Source of the DNA: Candidatus Sumerlaeales bacterium
Lineage (GTDB): Bacteria; Sumerlaeota; Sumerlaeia; Sumerlaeales; Sumerlaeaceae
Direction of reading: 5' to 3'
Length of the DNA stretch: 64,000 nucleotides
Assembly: GCA_038243585.1 (NCBI GenBank)
Contig: JBBSQY010000003.1
Span: 67,703 to 131,702 of the forward strand
Made by a program: the position numbers and the translations under genes. Shown in pieces: positions 16,237 to 33,321 of this stretch (its first letter is position 1; the number at the start of each line of letters is the position of its first letter). Under the pieces are notes generated by a model. The model did no database searches, had not been told where the DNA came from, and saw only the letters and a list, made by a program, of their open reading frames with translations.

Positions 16237-17033
16237 AAAGCATGAGCGCATTGCTGAAAATCCTGGTAGTCACCATGGCTTTTTGTGTTTTCCCAACGCA
16301 CGGTCGGGCTGCAACCACTATGACTTTACAAACTGCCAATGATCTGTTTGCCGCGGGCAACGCCTTCTATCGGGGTCAGAATTTTGAAGCTGCCCGAGAA
16401 GCTTATCAACAATTGCTTAACGCAGGGTATGACACTGCGCCTGTCCTTTATAATCTTGGAACCGCGGAAGCGCGGATGGGTAGCGCCACCCAGGCGCTCG
16501 CACACCTGGCAAGAGCTGAAAAACAGCGTCCGCGTGATGGTAACATACAGGCTAATATTGCTTTCGTAAAAAAAGCACCAGTGCAGTCCCTTAATACAAC
16601 CGCTAATGAATTGGTGGTCAGGGAGTCGATCTGGAGCCGAATCTATGGGTTCTTGACGGCAAGAGAATGGTTGGCGCTGCTGTGGATGGGGCTTATGGCT
16701 GCTTGTACTGGTGGAGTTTTACTGTTCTTCGCGCGCAACGCCCGATTGCACTCGATCGCGCACGGCTTAGTATTGGGTGGAGCAGGATTTATGGCCCTCG
16801 TTACTATCCCAGCCGCTACTCAATATTATCAATCACGTGTAGTCCAAAGTGCCATCGTAGTTTCGCCAGCGGAGTTATTAAGCGGCCCGGCACAACGGTT
16901 TACCCGCATAGCGAATCTTACTCAGGGCCAGATCGTCCGTAACCTTAAGGGTTCTGAAAAAGATTACCTGCATGTAAAACTGGACAATGGTCTTCACGGT
17001 TACGTGAAAAGTGATGCATTGCTCGAGATGTAA
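16233..17033 (+). CDS. batE: BatE-like TPR + SH3-like protein
   Basis: Signal peptide, GNAFYRGQNFEAA...LYNLG...PRDGNIQANI TPRs, two TMs, C-terminal SH3b-like LSGP...GLHGYV. Confidence 0.82.
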   Translation: MKSMSALLKILVVTMAFCVFPTHGRAATTMTLQTANDLFAAGNAFYRGQNFEAAREAYQQLLNAGYDTAPVLYNLGTAEARMGSATQALAHLARAEKQRPRDGNIQANIAFVKKAPVQSLNTTANELVVRESIWSRIYGFLTAREWLALLWMGLMAACTGGVLLFFARNARLHSIAHGLVLGGAGFMALVTIPAATQYYQSRVVQSAIVVSPAELLSGPAQRFTRIANLTQGQIVRNLKGSEKDYLHVKLDNGLHGYVKSDALLEM

Positions 17034-18667: not shown

Positions 18668-19221
18668 TTGATAAACCTGTGCTGAAGGACTGATTTTGTG
18701 CCCAGATACGGCAACAGAATGATATTTTACAAATATGCGTCAAATTTATAACGTCCAGTCTCTCAACTCCTCCAGCGCGGGCCACTGCTGATGTGCACAT
18801 GAAATCACCCTGAGTCAATTAACTCGAGTTATGACACTCAAACAACTGTAAGAGATTCTTCAATACGCCATTCAGCTTAAAAAAATCTGCGAGTCACGAA
18901 TCTCACCACACTGTCAACAATCCGTTTTAGGTAGCCGCTAGGTGTTGCGCTCTGAGCAATATTGAACACATTAAGGTAATTTTGCTGATCCGCCGACATG
19001 TCCGTCATAGGGGATTCTTTGTGGAAAGCGCTTTATTTCTCGCATTTGCTTCGTTTCTAAAGCGGTCAATTCCGTGCTTGACCAAGCGGCACCGACCGGT
19101 TCAGTTATAAACTTCGAATCCGGATTTTGCAGGTCGCACGTGCTTCCTGTAAGAATCTCCCGTGGAAGGGGATAGCGGCTAAGGCCGTTTTCTCCAAAGT
19201 TGACTGTTGAGGGTTCACACG

Positions 19222-21870
19222 ATGATTGATGTTCAAGGTGGGCGCAAGCGCGAGCCAGTCGCCGCTACTGATGAATTGGTAAGTGAAGCGGTCGCCATTG
19301 GCGTCGTGCTGTTGGCGGTGCTGATGACGTTGGCGTTAATTACCGAAGACGCCGGCAGCAACTTGGTCGGACGCGCTGGGTCCGTTGTCAGCGGTGGACT
19401 CACGTTCGCCGTCGGACGGTACGTCGCTTTCGTAGTACCGTTGCTGGTGCTCGCAACAGGCGTGCTGGTGTGGCGCGGAAGCGGACTTCATCGCGCAGGG
19501 CTCAGGATTATCGGGCTCTATGGCACAATGGTAAGCGTCTGTGCCTTGTTAGCGATTCCCTATGCCCAAAGTAATTTTAATGGAGACGACGGGTTTAGAT
19601 CAGGTGGGGCTCTCGGTAATTTCCTGGTACATTCTCAATGCCTGAACCTGGCTGGGTTGCTTGGGACAGCGGGAGCGTATCTGCTGTTTTCCGCGCTGCT
19701 GGTGGTCAGCCTTAGCACTGCCACCGATGTGCGGGTACGGGACACCATCATCGCTATTTCCGACTGGATACGTGGCAGCGGGTGGCGAAAATTTGTTTCT
19801 CCACTAGCGGCATGGGGCGCCCAGTTTACTTCCAGATTAGAGCAAAAGGATAATCTTGACGTAGAGCAACCGTTAGCTGTTAGATTTACTCCACAGGATG
19901 TGCAACCCGAAACCTACGGACGCAGCAGCAGGCTCGCGGCAGGACTCGACGCTGCTCCCGCTTTGGCCCAAGCACCGGCAACTGCTGCAACTACTGCAAC
20001 TACTGCAACTGCTCACGTCGCGCAGACGAATTACATTCCTGCATTTGCTCCGTCAACACCCACACCTGCTGTTCCTGTGGCCAGTGTCCCGGTGCAGGGA
20101 TGTCCCGGTTTGTCACTCGTTTCCGATGACGAAGACAATGATTTGGTAAGCATGGCGGAGGCCGGTCCAGGAATCCAGAGTGAGCTTGCGCTGATAAAAC
20201 CTTATCAGACACCACACTACACGATTCTGAACGCTCCTCCGACCGTTGTAAACGCCATGACCAATGAAGAGGTGGCGGAGATTTGCGAACGCCTGGAGAA
20301 AACCCTTGGTGAGTTTAACATCGTCGCCAGCGTGGTACAGGTAACGCAGGGACCTACCGTCACTCGTTATGAAATGCAGCCGGCTGCCGGGGTGAAGGTG
20401 GCGAAAATAGCGTCCCTTGAAAACGACATAGCCATGTGCATGAAAGCGGAAAGCGTTCGCATCATCGCGCCAATCCCCGGAAAGGGAACCGTTGGTCTGG
20501 AAATACCGAACAAGAAATCAAAGCCGGTTTTCCTACGGGAAATGCTTGAGACGGACGTATTCCGAAATCACCCGTCCCCTTTGGCTTTTGCCCTGGGCAT
20601 GACCATTGGTGGTGAGCCCTTCATTAGTGATTTGGCCACCATGCCCCACGTGCTTATCGCCGGTCGTACCGGCTCCGGTAAATCCGTTTGCCTGAACGCT
20701 ATTATCTGCTCTATTCTTTTTCGCATGACCCCTGACAAGGTTAAATTCCTGATGGTGGATCCTAAGCGTGTGGAACTCAACGTCTATCAGGCGATTCCTC
20801 ACCTGCTGGCGCCGGTGGTATGTGAGCCACGCAAGGCGGCGGCAGCGCTGACCTGGGCCGTGGAGCAGATGGACGAGCGCTATAAAAAATTGGCGGCAGT
20901 TGGCGTTAGGAATATTGACGGTTTTAACGCTATCGCTCAAAGCGATAAGCCGCACCCCAAGGCAATGGGGCGTCAACTCGCGTATATGCCCCATATCGTG
21001 ATAGTAATCGACGAATTGGCAGACTTGATGCTGATCGCTCGCAATGAAGTGGAAGACAATATCATCCGCCTCGCGCAAATGAGTCGTGCGGTTGGAATGC
21101 ATCTGATCCTGGCGACGCAGCGCCCATCGGTCAACGTTATCACTGGTATTATTAAAGCCAACTTTCCAAGCCGTGTGGCATTTCAGGTATCAAGCAAGGT
21201 GGACAGTCGCACGATTCTGGACGCCATGGGCGCAGAGGCTCTTTTGGGTCGGGGTGATATGTTGTTCAGTCCCGGCGGCAGCCCAAAGCCAATTCGGCTC
21301 CAGGGATGCTACCTGAGCGACGACGAAGTGGAAGCAACCGCGGACTGGGTGAGGAGCCAAGCTAAGGCACAGTATGAGATGCAAGACTTCCTGACCAAGA
21401 AGGAACAGGACGAATTGCGGATGGCGTCCAGCAACACAATGGGTAAAGATATGCTCAGCATGGACGGCATAGACGCAGACGAATCAACAGTGGCTATGCC
21501 TGAAGACGGCGACGATTATGATTTCACTTATCAGCAGCAACGGCGTGACGGCCGTTCTGTTGCCGAGGTGATGAACAGAGGCACATCCCCCTCGGCGCCC
21601 GTTCGTACGCATAATACCGATGAAAGCGACGCCATTGACGAGGAGTTGTTCAGTCAGGCCACAAGACTCATCCTAACACATCGTAAGGCGAGTGTTAGCC
21701 TGCTTCAGCGAAAACTAAAGATTGGCTTCGCCCGCGCAGGTCGCGTAATGGATATGCTGGAAGAACGGGAAATTGTCGGACCAAACGTAGGCAGCAAAGT
21801 TAGGGACATCCTGGTTGATCCGGATGAGTTTATGGCTGAAATGGATGAAGGCGACGATATGCGGTTCTAA
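19222..21870 (+). CDS. ftsK: DNA translocase FtsK
   Basis: 4TM N-domain, low-complexity linker, GPTVTRYE, HVLIAGRTGSGKS, IDELADLM, LATQRPSV, DSRTILD and gamma domain SVSLLQRKLKIGFARAGR. ATG at 19222 follows GAGGG. Confidence 0.97.
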   Translation: MIDVQGGRKREPVAATDELVSEAVAIGVVLLAVLMTLALITEDAGSNLVGRAGSVVSGGLTFAVGRYVAFVVPLLVLATGVLVWRGSGLHRAGLRIIGLYGTMVSVCALLAIPYAQSNFNGDDGFRSGGALGNFLVHSQCLNLAGLLGTAGAYLLFSALLVVSLSTATDVRVRDTIIAISDWIRGSGWRKFVSPLAAWGAQFTSRLEQKDNLDVEQPLAVRFTPQDVQPETYGRSSRLAAGLDAAPALAQAPATAATTATTATAHVAQTNYIPAFAPSTPTPAVPVASVPVQGCPGLSLVSDDEDNDLVSMAEAGPGIQSELALIKPYQTPHYTILNAPPTVVNAMTNEEVAEICERLEKTLGEFNIVASVVQVTQGPTVTRYEMQPAAGVKVAKIASLENDIAMCMKAESVRIIAPIPGKGTVGLEIPNKKSKPVFLREMLETDVFRNHPSPLAFALGMTIGGEPFISDLATMPHVLIAGRTGSGKSVCLNAIICSILFRMTPDKVKFLMVDPKRVELNVYQAIPHLLAPVVCEPRKAAAALTWAVEQMDERYKKLAAVGVRNIDGFNAIAQSDKPHPKAMGRQLAYMPHIVIVIDELADLMLIARNEVEDNIIRLAQMSRAVGMHLILATQRPSVNVITGIIKANFPSRVAFQVSSKVDSRTILDAMGAEALLGRGDMLFSPGGSPKPIRLQGCYLSDDEVEATADWVRSQAKAQYEMQDFLTKKEQDELRMASSNTMGKDMLSMDGIDADESTVAMPEDGDDYDFTYQQQRRDGRSVAEVMNRGTSPSAPVRTHNTDESDAIDEELFSQATRLILTHRKASVSLLQRKLKIGFARAGRVMDMLEEREIVGPNVGSKVRDILVDPDEFMAEMDEGDDMRF

Positions 21871-21885: not shown

Positions 21886-24800
21886 CTACTGGCCGAGTTT
21901 TTTTGAGTCGCTGGGGTCCAGCGCCGCTTCACGACACGCTACCAACAGGTCCATCAGGGCTACCCGTTTGTTCACCGAGCGGCTGGCTTTTAGCACATGG
22001 TCATCCTCTGTCGGTTTGTTTGCCTTGGAGTTTATGTTCTCAGCGGCATTCACCGACTCAAGGCCGCCGCGTGCGTCGTTATTAAACGGATCGATTAATC
22101 GCACCTGCTCATAGGCGAGGCGGGCGCGGAGCATTTCACCGCTCAGCAGCAGTTTCTCGGCCATGAGAAGATAGTCAGGAATAGCTTCGGCTTCTGGCGC
22201 GATCAGACTAATACAGTCGATACACTTCTGAATTAGCTCTGGTTGGTCGTCATGAAGACTGCGGGCTGTGCGGAAGGAGTCCAAAGCATTATCAATATCG
22301 CCCGCGTCAAACTGGCGGTTTCCCAGTCGTACATAATGAACGTATTGTAACGACGGATCATAGGAGTCGCGGCGAATGGCATCGCGAACATCATCCACTG
22401 TTTCCGGCTCACATTGGTCTACGATGCGGTAGGCATTTTCGGCTTCTAACATCTCGCCGCGATTGAGATGAACCTCCGCCAGAATCCGGGCCTGACGAGC
22501 AGCCTCCATAGTGTCTCCTGAATTCAAAAGGAGCTCCACCAGGCGCTGACGGACAGCCGTATTATTTTCATCCTGGGTCAAAATTCGACGATAGGTGTCT
22601 ATGCCTTTAACCGCGGCCGTACTAGCTAGGATGGCCGTGGCTCTGGAATAGCTTACGCGGGCGTCCTCGTGCATGCCGGCGGCTTCTTGGGAAGCCGCCA
22701 GGGCGAGACATAGATCGGCGTCTCGCGGTGAAATGGTCAGAGCCGCGTTCAACACTTCCACAGCGGCGGAGGGTTCATGGCGGTCCATGTACAGGTTCGC
22801 AAGTGTGCGCATTTCCGATAATGCCCTGTTCCGACTTCCCCGGCTAAGAAGGAATGTCGCATACCGCGACCGCGCCGCGGTGTTATCCGGAGCCATTCCC
22901 AGGATCTGCTCGTAAGTTTGAAGAGCCCCCTCAAAATCGCCCCGCCGCTCAAGAGCGTCTGCCAGTTTTCCGTATTCCTGAGGCATATTTTTTTCTGGAG
23001 ATTCAACTTGCGACAGCAGCTCCACGTACCGCGTGAGTATCGCTGGATCATCGGGAACAATGGACGCAAGTTTACGATAGGCTTCAAGGCCTTCCAAATC
23101 CCGGTTCGCTTTTTCGTAAATGTCAACAAGCTCCCGCAGCACATCAGCCTGCTGATCCCGGTTTCCTGTTTTTTCATACAACTCAGCCAGTTGCTCGCGC
23201 ACTTCCGGACTATCCGGTTGTTGGCGGGAAAGACGATCCAGCGTTGCGGTCGCTTCCGAAAACTCGCCACTATCCAGAAGCGACGGGATAAGGCCAAGCC
23301 AAGCGTCAAATGCCTCTTGCTGCATCCCCGCCTCTTCACAAGCTTGGGCCAGAGTTTTGCGCGCTTCCGCCCAAGCAGGACGAAACTTTACAGCTTTGTT
23401 CAGGAGTTCAATGCGGCGCTCCGTGTCTTTTGCGCCCAGCGCAGCATCTGCGGCGGCCCGATAATATCTGGCTGCCAGGTCCGGGTAGGAACTGGCCGCC
23501 AGCATATCTGCTATGCGCTCTCTGCATGGGATATTTTCCGGGTACTGCTCAACCAGGGCTTCGGCCTGATCACGGGCTTCTTCCAGCTCAGCGCGTTCCA
23601 GCAGGATACGAACGATATGCAGATGCTGCTCAATAGCTTCCTCTGGCCTATGCGCATTGTTAAGGCTGCGAGCAAGGTCGCGGTGCAAGGCAATCTGTCC
23701 GGGCGCCAGATCAACCAGTTCATACAGGACAGAAATAGCTTCTTCCTGTCGTCCCTGCTTTTCATGTTCTTCCGCTTCCCGGCGCAAGCGAAGTTGTAAT
23801 TCTTCCAGGCGACCCATCTGGCGGATCATGTCATAATGAGCCTGTTTCAATTGCTGATTGGATGGCACCCAATTTGTGCCCTCGGCCAGCAGACTCTCGG
23901 CCAGTTCCGAATTTCCCGCTTTATTTTCGTGATCGGCAAGCCAAATATACTCTTCGGCTCCCTTATCATGATTTTCCGTCTTGCGGTAAAATTCTAGCGC
24001 CGTCTGATGGACATGACGGTCCTCCGGTAGGGCTTGTACCAATTTTGCCAGCAATGGCGCAACTCGCTGTGCTTCGGTTGAGGTGGCCTTATCCATTACA
24101 TGGAAAACGCTCATACGGGCAGTTTCCATGTCCCCGATGCTGATCGCCAGCTCTCCCAGATGTCTCCATGCCTGGACTGTTCCAGGGCTTATTTGTGTTA
24201 CGCGGCGGTAGCACGTGAAAGCATAAGCCGTTTCGCCGGCCCCTTCATACAATTCCGCCGCTCGCATCCATTCAGCGACAGCTTCCGAAACCCGGTTCAG
24301 GCTTAACAGGGATTCTCCCAAGTCGTTATGGGCGGCGGCATCGGAATTGTCATAATTCAAAATAGTTACTGCAGCCAGGCGAATCCGTTCCGGATCTTCG
24401 GTTTCCCGTGCGACCGCCAGCAGCTGACGAGCGTAAAGGAGGCCTTTTTCAGAATTCCCTGCTCCCGCGCAGCAATCCAGCAATTTTGAAAGCAGGGCAG
24501 TGTCTCTGGGTGACCGCTCAAGTAGACGCTCATATTGACGAAGGGCGCTGGTGTGATCTCCCAGTTTCTGAAACTTTGTTGCAAGGGCGCGAGTGGTTGT
24601 AGTGAAAACTTCAACGTCGTTTGATTTGCCAGATAGCGACGCAAGCTGTTCCAGTATTTCCAGGTTATCGGGATCAAGTTGAAGGTATGATTGAAGTAGA
24701 CGACAGGCCTCACCCACGTTTCGTCGAGAAGCCTTCACATCGGCCAGTTTCCCAGTGAGTTTCCCCATGGCCTCAAGATCACCATTATCCCGAGCATCGT

Positions 24801-27800
24801 TCAACAGCGCCTGCAAAGCCGTTTCATTCCCCGGTTGTAGAGTAAGCACATGTGCATAAATTCGCCGGACCCGCTCATGGTGCTCAGCCTGCTGAAATAG
24901 CTCTGCCGTCTGCAGCCAATTGTCTATGGCGGAATCCGGTGCAATTGATTCCAAACGCGTTGCCAGTTTTTCCCGGAGATCAGTATTTCCCGGCGCCAGT
25001 TGAACAACCCGATTTAAAGCTTCTAAAAGTAAGTCGGTGTTGTTCATCTGCTCTGCCGACACGATAACTTCCTGTAGCAGGGCGACTGCTTCTTCCTGTC
25101 GCTTTTCTCGGACAAAATAGTCGGCCAGGGTGGCCTTCACATAAAGGTTATCAGGCTCCGCGGCAAGAGCCTCCAAGTAACAATCTTCCTCTTCGGAAAC
25201 CGCACCTGACATACTAAACAGCCTGGCGGCCTCCAGTGCGGAACGCCGTGCGTCTGACAGCATTTCAGACTGCCTGAATACCTGCGCCGCGAGGTACCAT
25301 GTATCCGCGGAATCCGGAGCAATATCCAATAATGTAGTCGCAATATCGAGCGCTTCAGAAAGTTTATTCTGGTCTGCCAGGCTTTTGACGCGTTGATGCG
25401 CGATACCGACCAGGAAGGTGCTTCCACCCAGGGTATGGATGGTTTTAAATATTTCAAGACCACGGGCCGGAGTGGTGGTGTCAAGCAGCGCAAGAGCAAT
25501 AATCTGGCTTTGTTTCTGACGTCGCGCCGTTAGGGCCGACCGCAGTTGTTCCCGAGCCACATCGTAGACATCGTCGCCCAAGCGGCGGACCAATGTCGCT
25601 ATGGATTCCGCCGGGATAGCGGATGGTTTCGCCGATATTGCCCGATTGACGTTTGCTATGGCCTGTTCAGACTTCCCGTCTTCTGAGAAAAGCAGGGCGG
25701 CCGTCATAAACTGTGCGGTGGCCTGATCGAGACGGCGGGAGCGTTCGTTTAGTTCAGCCAGAAGTCTGTATTGCTGCGCTGTAGAGACTAAGCCGGCAGC
25801 TTCATCCATCGCTTCAATGGCGGCATCGGTGTCGCCTGACGCAAGGGCATCACTGGCCAGTGTCATTAATTCCTGACGCAGGCGATTTCGGTTTCCGGTC
25901 AGGCGCAATGGTTCGAACAGTTCCTGACGCAGGCTCATGTCATGTGGCGCAAGAGCAATGACCTGAGTCAGCACGCTGATTGCGTCATCGGAATGGCATG
26001 CTGCGGTCCTGGCGCGCGCAGACTTCAATCCCCGTGTCATAGCCCGTGCGGGCGGAAGCATATCCATGTGACGGACAACATAATCGGCATTGAGCGGCGC
26101 AATTTCAATCGCCTGGGCCAAAAGAGCTTCGCGCCGGGATTTGTTTCCGGAATGCTTGTCCAGCTCTGATAGAGCGATATCAATTAATTTAACGGCGGAA
26201 TCGGAGTTCCCGGCCTTACTATGAGCGGCTGCGGCGATGCTGTAATCTTCAGGCAGGGCGGAATCCCCCGCCAGTTTCAACAGATCATCAAACACTTGGG
26301 CGGCATCGGCGGGCTTGCCACTATCTTGTAATATGCGGCCAGCATGGCGAAGATGGTCCTGAGCTCGTGCCGGGCTGTTGCCTTTTCTATAAAGGTCGGC
26401 GATGATCAAGTGCTCAAGTGGGTCTGCTGCAGACTCATGAGCTATTGCTGCTTCCAGCGTCTGCGCCGCTCCCTGGTAATCGCCCTCCGCTTCCAATAGA
26501 TTTGAAAGCTGTTTAAGATATGGCAGCGCCTCCATGGGGCGCTCAGTCTTCATCTGAGCGTCGGTCAGATCTCGCAACAGCGCTGTGGATGCAGGAATTG
26601 TTTCTACCAGGCGTATAAGATCGGCAATCCACTGGTTTTCGTCGACAGAATCTCGACGCTGATTAGCCCACTGGCGGTACAGCGGCAATGCTGCCGGCGA
26701 ACCTTCTATCTTATGCACCAGTTCTGCCAGGGTCCATAAGACGTCCGGGTTGTCAGGGTGCAGCGTAAGAGATTCCCGATAAGCAGCCATAGCACCGACG
26801 CTATCGTCTGAAGCTGCAAAAGTGTCGCCGATATCTGCCAGCGTGACGGCCGCATGCTCTGGTTGTTCAAGAGCCTTCTGAACCTCAACCTTATGCCGCA
26901 GCGCCGCCAGAAGGGCAGGGGACATATCCAGAATCTGGTCCAGAACTTCCAGAGCCGCATTAAACTGGCGGGATTGTTGAAGGAGTCTCGAGACCTCCAG
27001 CAAAGCATTTATCGCGTCGGCGGACTTGCCTAACTCGATGTTAGCATCCGCAAGTAACCGATGAGCTTCAGGGTTAGTGCCGGCCAAGCTGGTCCAGCGC
27101 CGGGCCATCTCCAGTGCTTCTGCGGCCTTGCCGGATTCCAGTAGGTTTCTTCCGCTGTCTGCAACCCACGTCAGGGCTTGCTGTTCATTCTCCATGCCCA
27201 TTAGAGCATCGGCGCGGGCGCTCGTGAGCACTCCGCTTTGACGAGTTAAATTCTCATCCAACCCACAAATGGCGATCAGTGCCGATGCGTTATTATCAGC
27301 GCCGGCAATGGTTGCGGCTGCTTCAAGGTCGGTCAGCGCCAAATCTGGACGTGCCTCGGACAATAGGGCGGTGGCGAGTTCAATCAGTGCGTTGACGTCT
27401 GCGCCATGTATCTTACGCAGATGCTTAAGAAGTGCTGCAAGCTGGGGTGATTTATCTGCGGTAAACTTATGGACTAGCTGAATCTGGTGGGGGAACGCTT
27501 CCGTATATCTTTTTGCTTCTGTTAAAAGTATAGCAAGCAGTCTGTGGACTTCAAAAGGCGCGACGCCCAAAGCGACTGCCGACTGGAGGGTCGTAATAGA
27601 TTCTTCTGTTGCCCCGGCGCTCTTGCTGGCGCGAGCAGATTGCACATAAGCTTCCGTTGCCTTTTCTGGATCCTGCTCAGCGGCGGCAATAGTCAGGTAG
27701 AGTCCGGCCTTTGCAGCGTGGTCAGATAGATCCGCCGCAAGTTTTCGGGCGGCGTCGAAATTGCCGGTCTGAGCGAATGTAACGCCAAGGAGTCGGCTTG

Positions 27801-30735
27801 CCTGGGCGTGGACGTCTGATTTCTTCTCTTGTCCCGAAAGGATTGCTAAGAGAGTATCCTGATCAGCGGCAGTGAAAAGGTTTTTTGATACCACCTGCTG
27901 TAGGGTCGCAAGAGAATGCTTTGCATCCCCCGCTTTAAGATATGCGGCCGCGGCGGCGGAAAAAGCCAGTGCGGCATTCTCAGGCTGGTCAATGGCAAAT
28001 AACGCCGCCCCAAGAGCCTCGTGGGCTTCTGCGCTGTCCGGGGCGACGCGCGTCCGTTCCTTCGCCCATCGTACCGCAGTCTGAGGTGGCCCTGATGCGG
28101 CAAACAGTGATGTAAGTTCCTCGGCTGCAGCCTGCGCGACGGGAACAAGCCCGGTAGCTTCGCTCGCGTGAAACAGCGCTTCCCAGGAAGCCGCAGAAGT
28201 TGGGCCTGCGACTTGAGCGGAATTCGTGCATCGGACAGCGCTTTCCGTATCGCCCTGCAGAGAATACGCTGTAGCGGCTTCGGCATACGCCTTGGCGGCG
28301 GCGTCACTTGCGCCGGTGATTTTGCATACCTCGCCATACTGCTCACTAATCTGAGGAATCTGCGGTGCAGAGGCGGCGGCCAGCTTCAGGACCTCGCCGG
28401 CGCTTTTCCAGTCACCCTGCATTGAGAGGCGTCCGGCTTGCCGAGCGCGGAGTTGAGCGACCCCTTCGGCTGCATCTAGTATTTCCAGAGATTCAATTGC
28501 ATCTTTAATGAAAGCATCATCATCAGGATACAGATCGGCATAGGCGAGATAGCCAGTTGCCGCTAACGCAGGATCAGTCTCCGCCCGCGTTGCTCGCAAT
28601 AGTTCATCGGTCAGCGGAGCGGCCTCATCCGGCGTCAGAAGCTCCACGGCCAGCATGGCCTGAATTGCTAATGCTTGAACAGAATCGGGATTTAGCGTGA
28701 CGGATTCGCGAGCAAACTGCAGGGCCGTCTCAAAATCTCCAGACGCGCGCAGGGTGGTCGCCACAGAGGAATACTGTTCCGCTGCCTCTGCCGATCGACC
28801 AAGGGACGACAGAAGAAAAGCAATGTCTGAAGGTGCTGACGGATGTGAAGGATCAAGAACCGCCATGCGCCGCGCCGCCTTAAGCGCAGACTCGGCATCC
28901 TCTTCAGCGAACCCCTGGATAACGTTTTGATAGATCAGCCCGACAAGATCCGTTCGTGATACCTGCTCTCCCTGCATGATAAGGCGAGGCGCGGCCTGCC
29001 CATATTCCGAAAGGCTGCCGGCTATAAACTCCAGTATTTCCACTGCTGCGTCGACTTGACCATTATTAAGGAGAGACTGAATGGAGTCAGCTGCCGCTTC
29101 TGCTCCCTGTGCAGGAGAAAGTTGATAAAGAAGCTGAACGTAACGTCGATGATTTTCCAGCTCTGTCGGAGACAGGCGAACCATCAGTTCATAAATATCT
29201 ACGCGTTCTTCCGGGCGAGCCGTTTCCTCTGCGGAAGCATAAAGTAGCCGAAGTTGATCCAAAGCAATATCTGCCGCATTATGATTCGCCAGCGACGCCA
29301 CCATTTGAAGTTTTAATGGCAGAGATATGTCTTTTGAGATTCCGTCCAGCAAAAGTGCTGAGGCATCATTTGCCTGATCGGAGGAATATAGGATTTCCGC
29401 AAGATCAATCATTTCAAAGGCGGCGCGTTGGTCCTGATCCATGGCCTGAAATTCGAGAATCAGCCGACGTCGCAGCGACGCGTCGGCAGGCAACAAAAAT
29501 TTCGCCCGAAGCAGAAGGTCTGCAGCGCGCTCGTGCAACCCGGTCGAAGCGGCTATTTTAGCTCCTTCCGCTAAGTACACGGCCGCTTCGGTCCCACGTT
29601 CCTGGTCGAGAAGCACGCGAGCCAACAGTTCTCTCGCATCAATGTTGTCCGGTTCACGTTCAAGCCAGCTATTTACGGTAGAGACCGCGAAGCCAAATTC
29701 CTGTTGATCAATCTGCTGATTTACTGCGCGAAAAGTATGGTCTCTCGCTTTATCGATGTTGCCAAAATCCGCCAGATGCCGGGCCAGATCCAACCGGGCG
29801 CGAATGTTTTCGCCATTAAACTGGATGACTTTTTCCAGTAGTTCTATGCCTTTTTCGGTGAGTCCCGCAGCTAAATAGGATTTCGCTGCGTTATCATATT
29901 GCCGGGATGCACCGCGTACATTGTGCTGCTGTTCGTACAATCCTGCGAGTTTAATTGGGAGATCCGTACGGGTCGGGGCCTTTTCAACCAACTGTTCAAG
30001 GAGTCCGATGTTATCCAGGTGACGATTTGTTCCTTCGCGGATCTCCACGATTTTTTCCATGCGCTCGATGGCCAGATCATTGTCGCCGCGTCCCTCTGCG
30101 ACTTTGACCCGCATAAAAAGCAGATCTTCATTATCAGGAAATCGCTGGATAGCATCATTAACAAGTGCCTCCGCGTCATCGAGGCGCTGAGCGGACAGGT
30201 AGTATTCGACAATCTTCGAGTACTCTTCAGCGGCGGCTTGAGGGTCTCCCATTTCCGCCTGAATGGAGGCGAGAATGACTCTGGCCTCCGGAAGGTCAGG
30301 CGAGACGGAGATAAGTTCCCGCAACAGCGACTCTGCTTCCGTTAAATCACCGCGATCCCTGGCCGACCTTGCGTCATTTAAATAGGACTCGACAAGATGA
30401 TCTTTCCAGTTTGGGTCCATCTCCAGACCCATCTGCTCTGCCAATTCAATAGCGGCGGAAAGAAGTGATAACTCTTTAGCGAGGGCGTAAAGTTCAATAA
30501 AAGAGCCGCCCGAGTAGCCCGGGCAGGTCTTGATCGTGCATCGAAATGCATGCCTTTCACTATCAACCAGCAAAGATCTGAAGCGCGAATCTTTGTGGAT
30601 GGGACAGAATGCCTTTAGTGTATCTCCGGCATGCTGCACCTTTTCCGAATGGAATCCAATCGCATCCAGCACAGCCACGGCGTTTACGTGAGCGTTGATA
30701 TCCTCGACGAGAGTAATGGCAAATTCAGTACTCAA
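21886..30735 (-). CDS. Giant (2949 aa) TPR-repeat protein with N-terminal CHC2-type (DnaG-like) zinc finger
   Basis: Uninterrupted 8.85-kb ORF. Residues 44-71 are CPIH-x18-C-x4-C in a primase ZBD-like context. The rest is tandem TPR-like repeats with P-D/P-N turns. Confidence 0.88.
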   Translation of the reverse strand: MSTEFAITLVEDINAHVNAVAVLDAIGFHSEKVQHAGDTLKAFCPIHKDSRFRSLLVDSERHAFRCTIKTCPGYSGGSFIELYALAKELSLLSAAIELAEQMGLEMDPNWKDHLVESYLNDARSARDRGDLTEAESLLRELISVSPDLPEARVILASIQAEMGDPQAAAEEYSKIVEYYLSAQRLDDAEALVNDAIQRFPDNEDLLFMRVKVAEGRGDNDLAIERMEKIVEIREGTNRHLDNIGLLEQLVEKAPTRTDLPIKLAGLYEQQHNVRGASRQYDNAAKSYLAAGLTEKGIELLEKVIQFNGENIRARLDLARHLADFGNIDKARDHTFRAVNQQIDQQEFGFAVSTVNSWLEREPDNIDARELLARVLLDQERGTEAAVYLAEGAKIAASTGLHERAADLLLRAKFLLPADASLRRRLILEFQAMDQDQRAAFEMIDLAEILYSSDQANDASALLLDGISKDISLPLKLQMVASLANHNAADIALDQLRLLYASAEETARPEERVDIYELMVRLSPTELENHRRYVQLLYQLSPAQGAEAAADSIQSLLNNGQVDAAVEILEFIAGSLSEYGQAAPRLIMQGEQVSRTDLVGLIYQNVIQGFAEEDAESALKAARRMAVLDPSHPSAPSDIAFLLSSLGRSAEAAEQYSSVATTLRASGDFETALQFARESVTLNPDSVQALAIQAMLAVELLTPDEAAPLTDELLRATRAETDPALAATGYLAYADLYPDDDAFIKDAIESLEILDAAEGVAQLRARQAGRLSMQGDWKSAGEVLKLAAASAPQIPQISEQYGEVCKITGASDAAAKAYAEAATAYSLQGDTESAVRCTNSAQVAGPTSAASWEALFHASEATGLVPVAQAAAEELTSLFAASGPPQTAVRWAKERTRVAPDSAEAHEALGAALFAIDQPENAALAFSAAAAAYLKAGDAKHSLATLQQVVSKNLFTAADQDTLLAILSGQEKKSDVHAQASRLLGVTFAQTGNFDAARKLAADLSDHAAKAGLYLTIAAAEQDPEKATEAYVQSARASKSAGATEESITTLQSAVALGVAPFEVHRLLAILLTEAKRYTEAFPHQIQLVHKFTADKSPQLAALLKHLRKIHGADVNALIELATALLSEARPDLALTDLEAAATIAGADNNASALIAICGLDENLTRQSGVLTSARADALMGMENEQQALTWVADSGRNLLESGKAAEALEMARRWTSLAGTNPEAHRLLADANIELGKSADAINALLEVSRLLQQSRQFNAALEVLDQILDMSPALLAALRHKVEVQKALEQPEHAAVTLADIGDTFAASDDSVGAMAAYRESLTLHPDNPDVLWTLAELVHKIEGSPAALPLYRQWANQRRDSVDENQWIADLIRLVETIPASTALLRDLTDAQMKTERPMEALPYLKQLSNLLEAEGDYQGAAQTLEAAIAHESAADPLEHLIIADLYRKGNSPARAQDHLRHAGRILQDSGKPADAAQVFDDLLKLAGDSALPEDYSIAAAAHSKAGNSDSAVKLIDIALSELDKHSGNKSRREALLAQAIEIAPLNADYVVRHMDMLPPARAMTRGLKSARARTAACHSDDAISVLTQVIALAPHDMSLRQELFEPLRLTGNRNRLRQELMTLASDALASGDTDAAIEAMDEAAGLVSTAQQYRLLAELNERSRRLDQATAQFMTAALLFSEDGKSEQAIANVNRAISAKPSAIPAESIATLVRRLGDDVYDVAREQLRSALTARRQKQSQIIALALLDTTTPARGLEIFKTIHTLGGSTFLVGIAHQRVKSLADQNKLSEALDIATTLLDIAPDSADTWYLAAQVFRQSEMLSDARRSALEAARLFSMSGAVSEEEDCYLEALAAEPDNLYVKATLADYFVREKRQEEAVALLQEVIVSAEQMNNTDLLLEALNRVVQLAPGNTDLREKLATRLESIAPDSAIDNWLQTAELFQQAEHHERVRRIYAHVLTLQPGNETALQALLNDARDNGDLEAMGKLTGKLADVKASRRNVGEACRLLQSYLQLDPDNLEILEQLASLSGKSNDVEVFTTTTRALATKFQKLGDHTSALRQYERLLERSPRDTALLSKLLDCCAGAGNSEKGLLYARQLLAVARETEDPERIRLAAVTILNYDNSDAAAHNDLGESLLSLNRVSEAVAEWMRAAELYEGAGETAYAFTCYRRVTQISPGTVQAWRHLGELAISIGDMETARMSVFHVMDKATSTEAQRVAPLLAKLVQALPEDRHVHQTALEFYRKTENHDKGAEEYIWLADHENKAGNSELAESLLAEGTNWVPSNQQLKQAHYDMIRQMGRLEELQLRLRREAEEHEKQGRQEEAISVLYELVDLAPGQIALHRDLARSLNNAHRPEEAIEQHLHIVRILLERAELEEARDQAEALVEQYPENIPCRERIADMLAASSYPDLAARYYRAAADAALGAKDTERRIELLNKAVKFRPAWAEARKTLAQACEEAGMQQEAFDAWLGLIPSLLDSGEFSEATATLDRLSRQQPDSPEVREQLAELYEKTGNRDQQADVLRELVDIYEKANRDLEGLEAYRKLASIVPDDPAILTRYVELLSQVESPEKNMPQEYGKLADALERRGDFEGALQTYEQILGMAPDNTAARSRYATFLLSRGSRNRALSEMRTLANLYMDRHEPSAAVEVLNAALTISPRDADLCLALAASQEAAGMHEDARVSYSRATAILASTAAVKGIDTYRRILTQDENNTAVRQRLVELLLNSGDTMEAARQARILAEVHLNRGEMLEAENAYRIVDQCEPETVDDVRDAIRRDSYDPSLQYVHYVRLGNRQFDAGDIDNALDSFRTARSLHDDQPELIQKCIDCISLIAPEAEAIPDYLLMAEKLLLSGEMLRARLAYEQVRLIDPFNNDARGGLESVNAAENINSKANKPTEDDHVLKASRSVNKRVALMDLLVACREAALDPSDSKKLGQ

Positions 30736-30822
30736 ACCACCGCCCGCGCGAGAGAAAGAATAGATAATCCAAAGTATGCGAAAACATCACAGCTGAGCTT
30801 TGTCCTGCTAATTAGAACGATT

Positions 30823-33321
30823 TCAAGCCTCCGAGATGCGGATGTTGTCCAGGTACAACGTTCCTGTAGTAGCGAGGTTGTCGCGGATTGACAGCGTGTT
30901 AAAATACTCGGGGGCGACCGGGAGTTTGCTGCCTTTAACAACCTGATCATCGTCAACCCAGGCATCTAGCAATCCCTCAACGAGATCAATTTCGTATTTT
31001 AAATGGCGCCAGGTTTCCATCTGGTAGGGAACGGCTTCACCCTGAACTCTCAAAGATGCAGGACCATTGGGGTCAAGCTGATGTACGATTGTATGCACCG
31101 ACTGCTTGAAATCCTCATCTTTTTCCAGATAAATGCCGAGCAGAAACTTGTTCTTATCGTCGCAGCGAACATCCAGTTCCAGCGTAACCCGACCCTTAGC
31201 CGGAGGGAAGCTTAAATGATATGTCGCGCTGCCTACGCCCTCCATTTTTTCATACATCAGGCATTTTGCGTGTCCTGCTTCTGCAAGATTCGCGACAGAT
31301 AAGGTGGAATAATCGTATTCTCCACGCCAGTCTGATGGTGAAGACCCCTCCGTTTCTTCATCGAAGCTCTGTTGAAAGACGATCTGTTCTGTTGAACCGG
31401 ACGCGGCGATTGCGCCTGCCGCAGACACGGCTGGCTCCAGGCTTTCAGGGACCGATTCGGATTCCTGCGAGGCGTCGCTAAAGCTGCCTCTTAACAGGGC
31501 CTCTAAATCGGCGTCCATGGAGCTGGTGACCTTTGCCGGCGTATTGTCTAACACAGGCGCTGCTGTTGGAAGGACAGGTTCTTCGTCGAAGTTGATGGAT
31601 ACAACCTCATCAGAGGGTGCGATCGTGCTTGCTGGCTCGGCGGATGATTCCGGTGAGATGTCGAAGGCACCAATTGAAACCATGTCGTTATCTTCGACCG
31701 GCGGGCTAGGGGCGGGAACTGGCGCAGGTTTGGCCAGTTCTTCCTCCTCGTCTTCGCTGTCATCCATAAGCGTAAAACCAGCCATTCCAGCAGCGCCCGC
31801 CATGGCAGGGCCGCCTGCCGGGGGGGATGTCATATTTACTGGCTGGCTGGTGATCCCCGCGGGAGTAGAATTAGAAGTCGCGTTGTAGCCACCGTCAGCG
31901 GCTAACGGGTCAATAAAATCCGGTCCGGAGGACGACAATCCGGCGGTTGACGGTAAGTTTTTTACGTTAACTTTTCGCCCTCTTGACTTCATCCAGATAA
32001 GAATAAGGATTAAAGCGATAAAAGCGCCAGCTCCGTAGAGAACAGGCTTGTTTTGCATCAACGCTGCAACACCGTCCGCGCTTTCTGATGACGCAGCGGG
32101 CTGGCGGGCTTCACCGAGGGCCGCCACTTTGCTGCGGGCTTCTCCATTGGTGGTGTCCAATGCCAGCACCTGGCGATATTTTTGAAGGGCTTCGTCATTA
32201 TTACCGGCGGTTTCCGAAGCACGAGCCTCGTTAAGCAGTTGTTGAACCTGCGCCGGATCGACGGAAGTTGAACTAGGTGCGGCCGCCGAAGTGACGATCG
32301 GGGTGCCGCCGGATTTCGCGATCTCTAAAGCCTTCACTCGACTTGCGAGGTAAATATCGTTAGAATCAAGCTGCCTAACATCCGCCAGTGCTTTTTCCGC
32401 GAAATCATAATTACGGTCTGCCATGGCACGCTCAAAGTCACGGTATAACGTAAATATCTGCTGCATTTTTTCACGGTCAGCGGATCGGCTGGTTTCCTGC
32501 CTGCTTACAATCGCTTTTTGATTTTCCGGCAGGTTCTGAATGGTTTCCCGCAACTGCTGAACCTCAGCAGCCGACGCTTCGCCGGATTCCACTTTTTCCG
32601 CCATTTCGAGTACCTGGCGAGTTTGCGTCTGCTCAGACTGCGATAAGCTACTTAGGTCTGCAGATGCGGGGTTCGCAGTATTTGGGCCGCGGAGCCTGTC
32701 ACGATTCACCACACTCGCCAAAGCAAAGCCGGCTTCATTGACCTGCGTCAATAAAGCGTTGGCGTCCGCCTTACGGTTAAACGTACCAAGCATCAGCATG
32801 TGGCGGCCATTTTCCTGGACCACGTCTACGTTGACAAATCCCTCATCTGCCAGAACCTCGCTTGCTCCTTCAGCTTCTGCCGCGGATCCGAACTCGGCCA
32901 CCTGTACCCGAAACACAGATTCCCCACCGCCTGCTGCGGGCGTAGTGCCATCCACAATACCTGAGGGGGTATAGCCGCCGCTTCTCAGCTTTTCCATTAC
33001 AGCATTTGCCGCATCGCGAGAAGCGAGACCACCAATCACTACATCAAAAGTGCCTTCTCCCGATGTCCGGGTTTCAGCTGCCACAAAATCTTCTTTTACC
33101 AGTTCGCTCTTTAAAGAGTTCGCTGTAGCCTCGGTTAGTTTTGGCGCGACAACCACACTGAAATTGCCTGATCCCCCTGCCGCTCCCGAAGGGGCCTGAC
33201 CCCCGCGAGGATTACTTCCACCAGAAGCGGCAGACTGAGCCGCGCAGGTGGAAATGGGGCCAATACATTGACCAATCAATGCAAGGCCGCTGAGACAGGT
33301 GCAAAAGGATTTCAGATTCAA
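30823..33321 (-). CDS. SPOR-SPOR-TPR single-pass membrane protein with acidic linker and C-terminal ConA/LamG-like domain
   Basis: TTG start after AGGAG. Signal peptide, two SPOR-like units (FRVQVAEF...ML-GTFNRKADA), TPR (QKYRQVLALDTTNGEA), TM VLYGAGAFIALILILIWM followed by KSRGRK, acidic/Pro region, beta-sandwich ending LYLDNIRI. Confidence 0.8.
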   Translation of the reverse strand: MNLKSFCTCLSGLALIGQCIGPISTCAAQSAASGGSNPRGGQAPSGAAGGSGNFSVVVAPKLTEATANSLKSELVKEDFVAAETRTSGEGTFDVVIGGLASRDAANAVMEKLRSGGYTPSGIVDGTTPAAGGGESVFRVQVAEFGSAAEAEGASEVLADEGFVNVDVVQENGRHMLMLGTFNRKADANALLTQVNEAGFALASVVNRDRLRGPNTANPASADLSSLSQSEQTQTRQVLEMAEKVESGEASAAEVQQLRETIQNLPENQKAIVSRQETSRSADREKMQQIFTLYRDFERAMADRNYDFAEKALADVRQLDSNDIYLASRVKALEIAKSGGTPIVTSAAAPSSTSVDPAQVQQLLNEARASETAGNNDEALQKYRQVLALDTTNGEARSKVAALGEARQPAASSESADGVAALMQNKPVLYGAGAFIALILILIWMKSRGRKVNVKNLPSTAGLSSSGPDFIDPLAADGGYNATSNSTPAGITSQPVNMTSPPAGGPAMAGAAGMAGFTLMDDSEDEEEELAKPAPVPAPSPPVEDNDMVSIGAFDISPESSAEPASTIAPSDEVVSINFDEEPVLPTAAPVLDNTPAKVTSSMDADLEALLRGSFSDASQESESVPESLEPAVSAAGAIAASGSTEQIVFQQSFDEETEGSSPSDWRGEYDYSTLSVANLAEAGHAKCLMYEKMEGVGSATYHLSFPPAKGRVTLELDVRCDDKNKFLLGIYLEKDEDFKQSVHTIVHQLDPNGPASLRVQGEAVPYQMETWRHLKYEIDLVEGLLDAWVDDDQVVKGSKLPVAPEYFNTLSIRDNLATTGTLYLDNIRISEA

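Follow-up and report, generated by a model that had tools for sequence, protein, structure and literature searches.

A genuine DnaG-type CHC2 zinc-binding domain (ZBD) forms the N-terminus of a 2,949-aa protein (hereafter the giant) encoded in the window, i.e. the whole 64,000-nt stretch of a Candidatus Sumerlaeales genome analysed here, and is followed by tetratricopeptide repeats (TPRs) up to the end of the protein. This combination is best explained by a cytoplasmic TPR solenoid bearing the ZBD as its N-terminal tip, every catalytic partner of the domain having been lost. To our knowledge, the primase ZBD is known only within primases and primase-helicases; the architecture was unfamiliar to the first-pass annotation of this DNA, and a literature search found no paper describing a ZBD-TPR protein. 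The features concerned are as follows.

21886..30735, minus strand: gene of the giant, 2,949-aa ZBD-TPR protein (ORF list and translation)
30415..30735, minus strand: DnaG-type CHC2 ZBD, residues 1-107 (PF01807, AF2, Foldseek, VIA-align, hhalign, ESM Atlas)
21889..30414, minus strand: continuous TPR/helical-repeat solenoid, residues 108-2949 (Pfam TPR profiles)
30523..30606, minus strand: zinc knuckles C44-P-I-H47 ... C66-T-I-K-T-C71, pattern C-x2-H-x18-C-x4-C (codons read on DNA)
30604..30606, minus strand: codon of C44 (read on DNA)
30595..30597, minus strand: codon of H47 (read on DNA)
30538..30540, minus strand: codon of C66 (read on DNA)
30523..30525, minus strand: codon of C71 (read on DNA)

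The primase-type domain and the solenoid behind it

The first-pass annotation had assigned 30415..30735 to a CHC2 domain from the cysteine and histidine pattern and had suggested profile and structure searches, all of which agree with the assignment. Compared with the isolated 130-aa segment, the Pfam profile PF01807 (Zn_ribbon_DnaG) gives 27.1 bits (E 3.6e-6, cut-off 24.9), residues 11-107 being aligned to profile positions 7-94 of 98. Over the whole 2,949-aa protein the same profile reaches only 20.3 bits, and because this is below the Pfam cut-off, database annotations miss the ZBD, which stays hidden in entries currently named “tetratricopeptide repeat protein”. The top PDB sequence match of the domain is Aquifex DnaG (2au3, E 1.1e-3). 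A profile built for the family recognises the ZBD of DnaG from the same genome both in a profile search of that genome (E 7.5e-7) and in hhalign comparison (probability 95.7%, E 9e-9). The AF2 model (pLDDT 92.8, the first helix also being of high confidence) consists of two N-terminal helices, a four-stranded zinc ribbon and C-terminal helices. With this model Foldseek ranks the DnaG ZBDs 2au3 (E 4.4e-5) and 1d0q (E 2.1e-4) first, the next match having E = 1, while VIA-align gives Z 10.6 and 10.2, respectively, over 101 residues, then weaker matches to T4 primase (Z 6.5) and Twinkle (Z 5.7) and a next match at Z 3.8, the ZBDs of primases being the top four among 48,161 PDB chains. In the ESM Atlas, PF01807 is found on 25 of the 30 clusters nearest to the giant ZBD. 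Stand-alone CHC2 proteins of ~105-115 aa devoid of a primase core also occur among the ESM Atlas clusters.

The four ligands named initially, C44, H47, C66 and C71, are intact and kept in every relative examined (21/21 giants and 27/27 diverse family members). A regular expression for the zinc knuckles finds 186 of 197 stored family proteins, and seven of the 11 missed ones have C-M-x-H instead, still with the four ligands; of the 186, 170 show a C-x4-C second knuckle, as opposed to C-x2-C of DnaG. These residues are predicted to bind zinc. As many as 17 invariant columns fall within the first 94 residues versus 62 in the remaining 2,855 (20 giants, 22-56% identity), and in the conservation profile of 21 giants residues 51-100 tie as the best-conserved 50-residue window. 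Judged from these alignments, the ZBD of the giant is under strong constraint.

The rest of the protein, described at first as about 2800 aa of TPRs, is indeed covered over residues 108-2949 by multiple strong matches to Pfam profiles TPR_14 (E 1.2e-74, 15 stretches), TPR_19 (E 3.7e-69, 16 stretches) and TPR_16 (E 4.2e-43, 11 stretches), and its C-terminal 204 aa give TPR matches only. Among 21 giants, conservation of the solenoid is highest near both ends, residues 2801-2850 being equal to the ZBD core, and lowest at about residues 900-1150. Whole-protein Pfam scanning revealed no other domain family above cut-off besides repeat look-alikes, and for TOPRIM, helicase and AAA+ domains Pfam and NCBIfam returned repeat families and weak partial matches only, in line with the earlier remark that no TOPRIM, helicase or P-loop motif follows the ZBD. 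The sole Walker-A-like string, at residue 1231, lies within a TPR and has no AAA+ match; PF00308 (DnaA-type AAA+) finds no match in Pfam scanning, and a C-terminal DnaB-binding domain was not found with Pfam or NCBIfam. The lack of a primase core, also proposed previously, is evident from TIGR01391 (DnaG), which aligns over model positions 8-101 of 414 only (25.9 bits versus a cut-off of 283.6), and from the lack of any Toprim family. No membrane helix is predicted in the giant, the maximal Kyte-Doolittle value over 19-residue windows (1.73) being too low.

The reading frame extends on the minus strand from a TTG codon at 30735 to a stop codon at 21886..21888; residues 1-107 correspond to 30415..30735, and the peptide quoted in the first-pass annotation matches the translation of the DNA. 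An equivalent start position is used by 19 of the 20 giant orthologues (2,574-3,055 aa long), the start call of the remaining one, P0012, being ~25 residues further in; together with the confidently modelled first helix, these starts support the TTG codon. One might still suspect an artefact, be it a Cys/His pattern arisen by chance, a misassigned start codon or a 5′ end of the gene that is not translated or is decaying, since no clear Shine-Dalgarno sequence precedes the TTG codon and the whole-protein Pfam score remains under its cut-off. The chance of this is negligible: an artefactual origin of the ZBD is refuted by the orthologue starts, 19 of 20 orthologues being conserved as protein from residue 1 onwards, by the invariance of the ligands, by the confident fold with its primase-dominated structural matches and by the conservation profile, in which few parts of the giant are conserved as well as the ZBD. 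The profile match is significant, the Cys and His residues are kept and the start lies upstream of the motif, these being the points on which the initial assignment could have failed.

The ZBD-TPR family of Sumerlaeota

By sequence comparison the giant is a member of a Sumerlaeota-wide ZBD-TPR family, in which it represents the “giant” class. The ZBD-TPR head is present in 72 of 75 Sumerlaeota genomes in one to five copies each. The family domain is matched at E <= 1e-3 by 264 representative clusters, being N-terminal in nearly all of the matches listed, and named full-domain matches all belong to Sumerlaeota/BRC1 except two, labelled Hydrogenedentota and “bacterium”. Two partial matches sit on contigs labelled Bacteroidetes and Mucilaginibacter. 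Within the same genome the giant is the top match of the family profile (E 3.1e-56) and is accompanied by a 1,370-aa fusion of ZBD and TPRs to DnaA domain III and by a 531-aa form. Thus, the architecture pictured by the first-pass annotation stands, but the picture lacked the phylum-wide family, the paralogue with DnaA domain III and the conserved membrane-protein neighbour described below.

L006:7635-11747, same genome: ZBD-TPR-DnaA-domain-III paralogue, 1,370 aa (TIGR00362 and alignment)

This paralogue aligns colinearly with the giant along the N-terminal 237 residues, which span the ZBD and the first TPRs (E 5e-23), and matches DnaA model TIGR00362 over positions 83-339 of 437 with 331.9 bits; domain IV of DnaA is absent. 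A DnaA-type AAA+ domain terminates 30 of the 150 best clusters, all 30 carriers being shorter than the giants (>=2,300 aa), none of which (0/43 in the same 150) contains it. Source names given to the forms with DnaA domain III are, among others, “DnaA/Hda family protein”, “chromosomal replication initiator protein DnaA” or “tetratricopeptide repeat protein”. This genome also retains an ordinary DnaA and an ordinary DnaG that has a ZBD itself, the complete DnaG being a 612-aa frame with 125 bits for PF01807. The 531-aa paralogue resides on the dnaG contig ~16 kb from dnaG; the giant has no synteny with dnaG.

Primase ZBDs can function in trans, serving the catalytic domain of an adjacent primase, and an orphan ZBD might likewise act on the primase or replisome of the cell, the giant recruiting, sequestering or tuning DnaG at a fixed site. 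The complete DnaG of the same genome and the recognition of its ZBD by the family profile are compatible with such a role. Nevertheless, it is precisely next to the zinc site that the family departs from DnaG, with R51, R53 and the C-x4-C knuckle, and this, with the lack of synteny to dnaG, makes action in trans decidedly improbable.

The SPOR-domain neighbour

Upstream of the giant gene and on the same strand lies a gene for a SPOR-domain protein, with the following features.

30823..33321, minus strand: upstream partner gene, 832-aa SPOR protein of predicted bitopic topology (Pfam SPOR 5.9e-18, translation)
31990..32046, minus strand: predicted transmembrane (TM) helix, residues 426-444 of the SPOR protein
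30826..31386, minus strand: ConA-like jelly-roll C-domain, residues 646-832 of the SPOR protein (AF2, Foldseek, conservation)
30736..30822, minus strand: intergenic spacer of 87 nt between the SPOR gene and the giant

The SPOR protein begins with a signal-like segment, continues with SPOR domain(s) and one TM helix and, after an acidic low-complexity linker, ends in a beta-sandwich. Its bitopic topology is suggested by the hydrophobic segments and by the basic residues after the TM helix, and the predicted position of this single helix would place the C-domain in the cytoplasm; a point against such placement is that ConA-like jelly rolls usually bind carbohydrates outside the cytoplasm. Residues 646-832 have no Pfam family, yield an all-beta AF2 model (pLDDT 91.6) matched in Foldseek by lectin/glucanase-type jelly rolls, contain 51 invariant columns in 12 sequences and are encoded in exactly one copy in 71 of 75 genomes of the phylum.

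No promoter-like or terminator-like site is reported on the minus strand of the 87-nt spacer, which is compatible with probable co-transcription of the two genes. A SPOR homologue is located directly upstream of the giant on the same strand in 10/10 close loci and in 5/10 diverse loci; at the other five diverse loci, where the SPOR gene is not adjacent, the neighbours are CarboxypepD_reg/Big_5 proteins, an MFS transporter or genes without a Pfam family. As read from match tables, at least 30 of 71 genomes encode the C-domain upstream of a ZBD match, on its strand and not more than ~360 nt away, and the genomes with this pairing span 10 of 18 GTDB families, including one genome of another class. 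Among the loci compared, the convergent FtsK neighbour of the giant is confined to the window and two close relatives.

Structure prediction suggests that the beta-sandwich of the SPOR protein may bind the C-terminal TPRs of the giant. The complex scored 0.51 (runs 0.61, 0.16 and 0.51) against 0.00 for the best control, a value which, per calibration, misleads more often than not unless the two proteins were likely partners beforehand. Swapping out the C-terminal piece of the giant dropped the score to 0.00; in the model the partner has pLDDT of at least 84 and the runs have at least 51% of contacts in common. Of 157 solved complexes, 116 attained the calibration mark, as did 2 of 215 mismatches, scores at 0.60 or under accounting for only 18 of the 157 and for both passing mismatches, and the job, with its custom alignments and three chains, is unlike the calibration set.

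Possible roles and likeness to known systems

For the ligand of the ZBD and the cellular role of the giant we infer, tentatively and short of an even chance, a scaffold that is anchored to the envelope and contacts DNA or the replication machinery with the ZBD at its tip. SPOR domains are peptidoglycan-binding, and the SPOR protein would attach the complex to the wall, perhaps at the septum, and bind the conserved C-terminal TPRs of the giant through its cytoplasmic domain. The long solenoid would recruit further proteins, while the distal ZBD would engage single-stranded or primed DNA or a replisome protein, the same target being supposed for the ZBD of the paralogue with DnaA domain III. The giant would thereby connect the envelope with the replication or segregation of the chromosome.

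Hints on nucleic-acid binding are mixed. Giants have invariant basic residues next to the knuckles (K41, R53 and K69), and R53, D58 and K69 are family-specific invariants relative to DnaG; the net charge of residues 1-107 is -6 versus +1 for the DnaG ZBD of the same genome (family mean -0.7, sd 3.2), with basic charge confined to the knuckle core (+2 in the giant, family mean +3.1). Across the paralogue classes only the ligands and P45, G77 and L82 are invariant or nearly so, and therefore the classes may not all share one ligand.

The same data may be read differently, assuming that the ZBD is only a zinc-stabilised structural or protein-protein cap with no nucleic-acid role, that the giant and the SPOR protein scaffold an envelope process (wall or septum assembly, secretion) and that the head of the DnaA-fused paralogue is a mere docking or oligomerisation module. 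TPR arrays are protein-binding modules, and the acidic net charge, the restriction of cross-class invariance to ligands and structural residues, the stand-alone CHC2 proteins and an envelope protein as the only conserved neighbour of the giant all suit this proposal. We consider it somewhat less probable than the reading above, given that the characterised members of this fold returned by structure searches are all ZBDs of primases or primase-helicases, that K41, R53 and K69 are invariant in giants and that 30 of the 150 best clusters join the ZBD head to the ssDNA-binding ATPase core of DnaA.

The envelope-anchored scaffold may be extended to a phylum-specific system of Sumerlaeota, in which the DnaA-ended ZBD-TPR arm would join or regulate the initiator filament on unwound origin DNA, while the giant arm would be fastened via the SPOR protein to septal peptidoglycan, coupling the start of replication, or the position of the fork, to the site of division. 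In its entirety this is a speculative and improbable scheme; if true, it would be a novel mode of cell-cycle coordination in bacteria, with the ZBD as a portable reader of ssDNA or the replisome outside any primase. In any case, one of the largest TPR proteins of the genome bears at its tip a primase ZBD that is kept under strong constraint without an enzyme, and the same genomes carry a primase-type ZBD on a DnaA-ATPase fusion. Should the domain still read DNA or the replisome, the family offers a handle on the replication-envelope link in an uncultured phylum; should it not, the family is a plain example of a nucleic-acid module turned into a protein-binding cap.

Among known systems, the ZBDs of DnaG from Aquifex aeolicus (2au3) and Bacillus stearothermophilus (1d0q) have the same fold of ~100 residues and share with the giant the ligand order C-x2-H ... 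C ... C, the GG motif, the helices that follow and the N-terminal position. The giant ZBD differs in its C-x4-C second knuckle, invariant R53, D58 and K69 and net acidic charge, and the whole protein in having about 2,840 aa of TPRs instead of the RNA-polymerase/TOPRIM and helicase-binding domains. The ZBDs of T4 gp61 (8dvf) and human Twinkle (7t8b), with their weaker structural likeness (the Z scores given above), are carried by primase cores, active or vestigial, that are joined to helicases, whereas the giant has neither. A further relative is the paralogue with DnaA domain III, which has the N-terminal 237 residues in common with the giant, belongs to the same phylum and co-occurs with the giant class in the same genomes; the giant differs from it in having no ATPase, twice the length and a SPOR-protein neighbour. 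Envelope-to-chromosome tethers and giant TPR scaffolds of other bacteria, such as polar or septal organisers, have as a class no specific homology to the giant and offer an analogy solely in the manner of working, which would combine anchoring in the membrane or wall with a long scaffold for protein interactions and a module that possibly faces DNA.

The zinc-binding domain and the repeats behind it

The first-pass annotation described the N-terminal 107 residues of a very large protein as a DnaG-type CHC2 zinc-binding domain (ZBD) with no primase core. According to the ORF list and translation, the following features are assigned to this gene, hereafter the giant:

21886..30735, minus strand: giant ZBD-TPR protein, TTG start, 2,949 aa
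30415..30735, minus strand: residues 1-107, ZBD

The translated peptide agrees with the one quoted in that annotation, and the codons of C44, P45, I46, H47, C66 and C71 were verified on DNA. An equivalent start position is found in 19 of 20 orthologues (in the exception, P0012, the start is called ~25 residues further in), so that the motif lies downstream of the true start, inside the protein.

Six independent lines (Pfam, PDB sequence, hhalign, AlphaFold2/Foldseek, VIA-align and ESM Atlas) identify the giant's N-terminus as a primase zinc finger. The zf-CHC2 profile PF01807 (Zn_ribbon_DnaG; cut-off 24.9 bits), proposed as a check, matches the isolated 130 aa significantly (E 3.6e-6, 27.1 bits, profile positions 7-94 of 98), whereas the whole giant scores only 20.3 bits; because the whole-protein score falls under the cut-off, the family is listed for none of 21 giants. 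Aquifex DnaG (2au3) is the top PDB sequence match for a single-sequence query (E 1.1e-3), and a profile built from 27 family sequences returns 2au3 at E 8.8e-4 and 1d0q at 0.068. When the family profile is aligned by hhalign with the ZBD of the genome's own DnaG, the probability is 95.7% (E 9e-9, 93 columns), and this DnaG is likewise retrieved by the family profile in a whole-genome search (E 7.5e-7). Foldseek with the AlphaFold2 model of residues 1-115 (mean pLDDT 92.8) ranks DnaG ZBDs first: 2au3 at E 4.4e-5 and 1d0q_A at E 2.1e-4 (TM 0.66 on target), the third match having E = 1. Among 48,161 representative chains, VIA-align places 2au3_A (Z 10.6) and 1d0q_B (Z 10.2, rmsd 2.6, 101 residues) at the top, followed by 8dvf_H of T4 primase (Z 6.5) and 7t8b_A of Twinkle (Z 5.7); the next match falls to Z 3.8. 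In ESM Atlas, PF01807 proteins account for 25 of the 30 nearest clusters.

The ligands named from the sequence alone, C44, H47, C66 and C71, are present in 21 of 21 giants retrieved, and they are invariant both in the 20-sequence full-length alignment and in 27 diverse family members (27-48% identity). A four-ligand regular expression matches 186 of 197 stored proteins; in seven of the 11 misses C-M-x-H replaces C-P-x-H with all four ligands kept, two are non-members (P0169, which is the SPOR protein, and P0144, rejected as a low-complexity false positive), and the last two are P0172 and P0178. With these ligands and six lines of matches on one side and the sub-threshold whole-protein score on the other, the reading of the ZBD as an artefact is hardly conceivable. 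In the 20-sequence alignment, 17 invariant columns fall into the first 94 residues vs 62 in the other 2,855; the ZBD is more constrained than the remainder of the giant, and among 50-residue windows 51-100 is tied with 2801-2850 as the best conserved.

Behind the ZBD stretches a TPR solenoid. Beyond the N-terminal domain Pfam and NCBIfam give only TPR-type and look-alike repeat families, the match to the dnaG model TIGR01391 is restricted to positions 8-101 of 414, and the same scans yield no match to Toprim, helicase or AAA+ models. The statement that no TOPRIM, helicase or P-loop follows the ZBD therefore stands; a lone Walker-A-like string at residue 1231 is situated within a TPR and was judged to be chance rather than a functional P-loop. 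The giant thus combines an intact primase-type ZBD with the lack of catalysis. Since none of its segments is sufficiently hydrophobic for a membrane helix, it is taken, on sequence grounds, to be cytoplasmic.

The SPOR protein encoded upstream and a putative scaffold

The gene directly upstream of the giant encodes a SPOR-domain protein in the same orientation; in the 87-nt spacer between the two, no minus-strand terminator-like or promoter-like site is reported. The features of this neighborhood are:

30823..33321, minus strand: SPOR protein, 832 aa
30826..31386, minus strand: its C-terminal domain, ConA-like jelly roll by predicted fold
19207..21870, plus strand: full-length FtsK (4TM, alpha, motor and gamma domains), convergent with the giant, stops 16 nt apart

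The SPOR protein consists, in this order, of a signal-like N-terminus, the SPOR domain (Pfam 5.9e-18, two matched stretches), a single TM helix (residues 426-444), an acidic low-complexity linker and a C-terminal domain of ~187 aa. The latter is the best-conserved part (51 invariant columns in 12 sequences), has no Pfam family and is modeled (pLDDT 91.6) as an all-beta sandwich resembling ConA-like lectin/glucanase jelly rolls. Located behind the sole TM helix, this domain is presumably cytoplasmic, which would be an unusual location for a ConA-like fold.

The neighbor is conserved and single-copy. All 10 close Sumerlaeota loci and five of 10 loci picked across other families have a SPOR homologue at this position; the remaining five have CarboxypepD_reg/Big_5 proteins (two), an MFS transporter (one) or nothing recognizable (two) upstream. 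Of 75 genomes, 71 have a single copy of the C-terminal domain, and at least 30 of these encode it closely ahead of a ZBD match in the same orientation, as counted by eye from coordinate tables in which 150 of 221 ZBD matches were listed; these paired genomes span 10 of 18 GTDB families, and one of them belongs to a different class. Genomes in which the two genes are not adjacent retain both.

Several local variations accompany this arrangement. In three relatives (L016:6204-9899, L011:6404-9928 and L015:5233-8745) the SPOR protein is extended at its N-terminus by a domain of ~200 aa, which the window's copy lacks (alignment A3). In one GTDB family (L029:1298-3352 and L034:15503-17662) a CarboxypepD_reg/Big_5 multi-beta-sandwich protein of 685-720 aa stands upstream of the giant instead, and an ORF of ~560 aa without Pfam family overlaps the giant's stop. 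FtsK was rejected as a conserved partner, being found in two of 10 close loci (L007 and L008) and in none of 10 diverse ones, so that its adjacency to the giant is retained only in the two closest relatives. On the plus strand, the genes at 10025..17033 encode, among others, a VWA+TPR protein, a small TPR protein and a protein with a BatD domain, and this run resembles an aerotolerance-type (Bat) operon.

Physical contact between the two products was approached by complex prediction with three chains (giant 1-400, giant 2540-2949 and partner 645-832), for each of which a separate alignment was supplied. Three runs scored 0.61, 0.16 and 0.51 (median 0.51) vs 0.00 for the best control, which amounts to weak support; at scores of 0.60 or lower the calibration set holds only 18 of its 157 solved complexes together with both passing mismatches (the mark as such is passed by 116 of the 157 and by two of 215 mismatches), and the three chains with own alignments make this job differ from the calibration. 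The partner was modeled with a pLDDT of 84 or more, the runs agreed in no fewer than 51% of contacts, and swapping out the giant's C-terminal piece brought the score to 0.00. The prediction hints that a contact, should it exist, would engage the giant's conserved C-terminal TPRs.

Tentatively, we consider the giant as a possible envelope-to-replication scaffold, in which the SPOR protein would anchor it to the wall and the ZBD tip may contact the replication machinery or DNA itself. That the tip simply binds DNA is disfavored by its net charge, -6 vs +1 in the ZBD of the genome's own DnaG, and by the conservation across family classes, which is limited to the ligands and a few structural residues. 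These two properties speak for the reading of the ZBD as a purely protein-binding zinc cap, which we regard as somewhat less likely than the scaffold.

The ZBD-TPR family and its relation to known proteins

The genome that encodes this putative scaffold possesses three ZBD-TPR proteins, namely the giant and two paralogues:

L006:7635-11747, minus strand (contig 49): 1,370-aa ZBD-TPR-DnaA-domain-III paralogue, by profile matches
L021:1474-3069, plus strand (contig 18): 531-aa paralogue with ZBD, ~200 aa of TPR, Ser/Gly/Pro-rich linker and C-terminal region of ~100 aa

The same genome also encodes DnaA and DnaG in normal form (frames of 470 and 612 aa, respectively; PF01807 125 bits for DnaG). 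The latter could be the object of a ZBD acting in trans on primase, an option that we find improbable for the giant.

The 1,370-aa paralogue has the same ZBD head (PF01807 18.8 bits) followed by TPRs, and its first 237 residues align colinearly with those of the giant (25% identity, E 5e-23). Its C-terminus matches TIGR00362 over positions 83-339 of 437 with 331.9 bits, just under the cut-off of 343.9 and far above the 91.5 bits obtained for Hda; domain IV of DnaA is absent. The trio of canonical DnaA, long fusion and small DnaA-like protein recurs in three other genomes checked. The genes next to this paralogue (sulfatase and succinyl-CoA ligase alpha) are uninformative. The C-terminus of the 531-aa protein belongs to no Pfam family; its gene, which converges with another gene, is separated from dnaG by ~16 kb of contig 18, and a class of ~485-590 aa recurs in many Sumerlaeota genomes. 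A fixed chromosomal position for family genes was rejected, as there is no consistent pattern relative to dnaA: in the closed genome G066 (3.29 Mb) the giant maps to 1.54 Mb with dnaA at 1.06 Mb, while in G069 (6.0 Mb) the genes for the SPOR protein (4.42 Mb) and for the DnaA fusion (4.61 Mb) are roughly opposite dnaA (1.50 Mb).

A phmmer search with residues 1-115 through all of 1.84 billion representatives returned 264 clusters at E <= 1e-3, of which 138 reach E <= 1e-10. Among the best 150 of the 264, the ZBD match is N-terminal in nearly all, and the clusters comprise 43 giants of at least 2,300 aa without ATPase, 30 proteins ending in a DnaA-type AAA+ domain, 13 of 1,200-2,299 aa without AAA+, 24 of 400-1,199 aa and 40 shorter ones, many of the shortest being taken for fragments. 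Pfam on 20 of these clusters found TPR only in 17, TPR with Bac_DnaA in two and a low-complexity false positive in one. All named full-domain matches are from Sumerlaeota (BRC1) except two, labeled Hydrogenedentota and "bacterium". Partial matches of 55 and 50 residues occur on MAG contigs labeled Bacteroidetes and Mucilaginibacter (L017 and L018), which could reflect mis-binning or a wider distribution. The module is present in 72 of 75 Sumerlaeota genomes in 1-5 copies each; the three genomes lacking it have completeness values of 66% (one) and 91-92% (two). The giant is therefore not a singleton but a member of a family with a DnaA-domain-III paralogue.

In a full-text literature search, judged from titles and abstract openings, no publication was found on the ZBD-TPR architecture, the family or the SPOR pairing, and in databases the members are named "tetratricopeptide repeat protein", "DnaA/Hda family protein" or "chromosomal replication initiator protein DnaA". 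The primase ZBD itself is a known domain. The feature clusters closest to query 30391-30735 in ESM Atlas consist of stand-alone CHC2 zinc-finger proteins, ~105-115 aa long and with Planctomycetota as the most frequent label, and therefore orphan primase ZBDs exist outside Sumerlaeota too, in a different form. Within the family, the final Cys pair is spaced C-x4-C in 170 of 186 members, whereas in DnaG it is C-x2-C.
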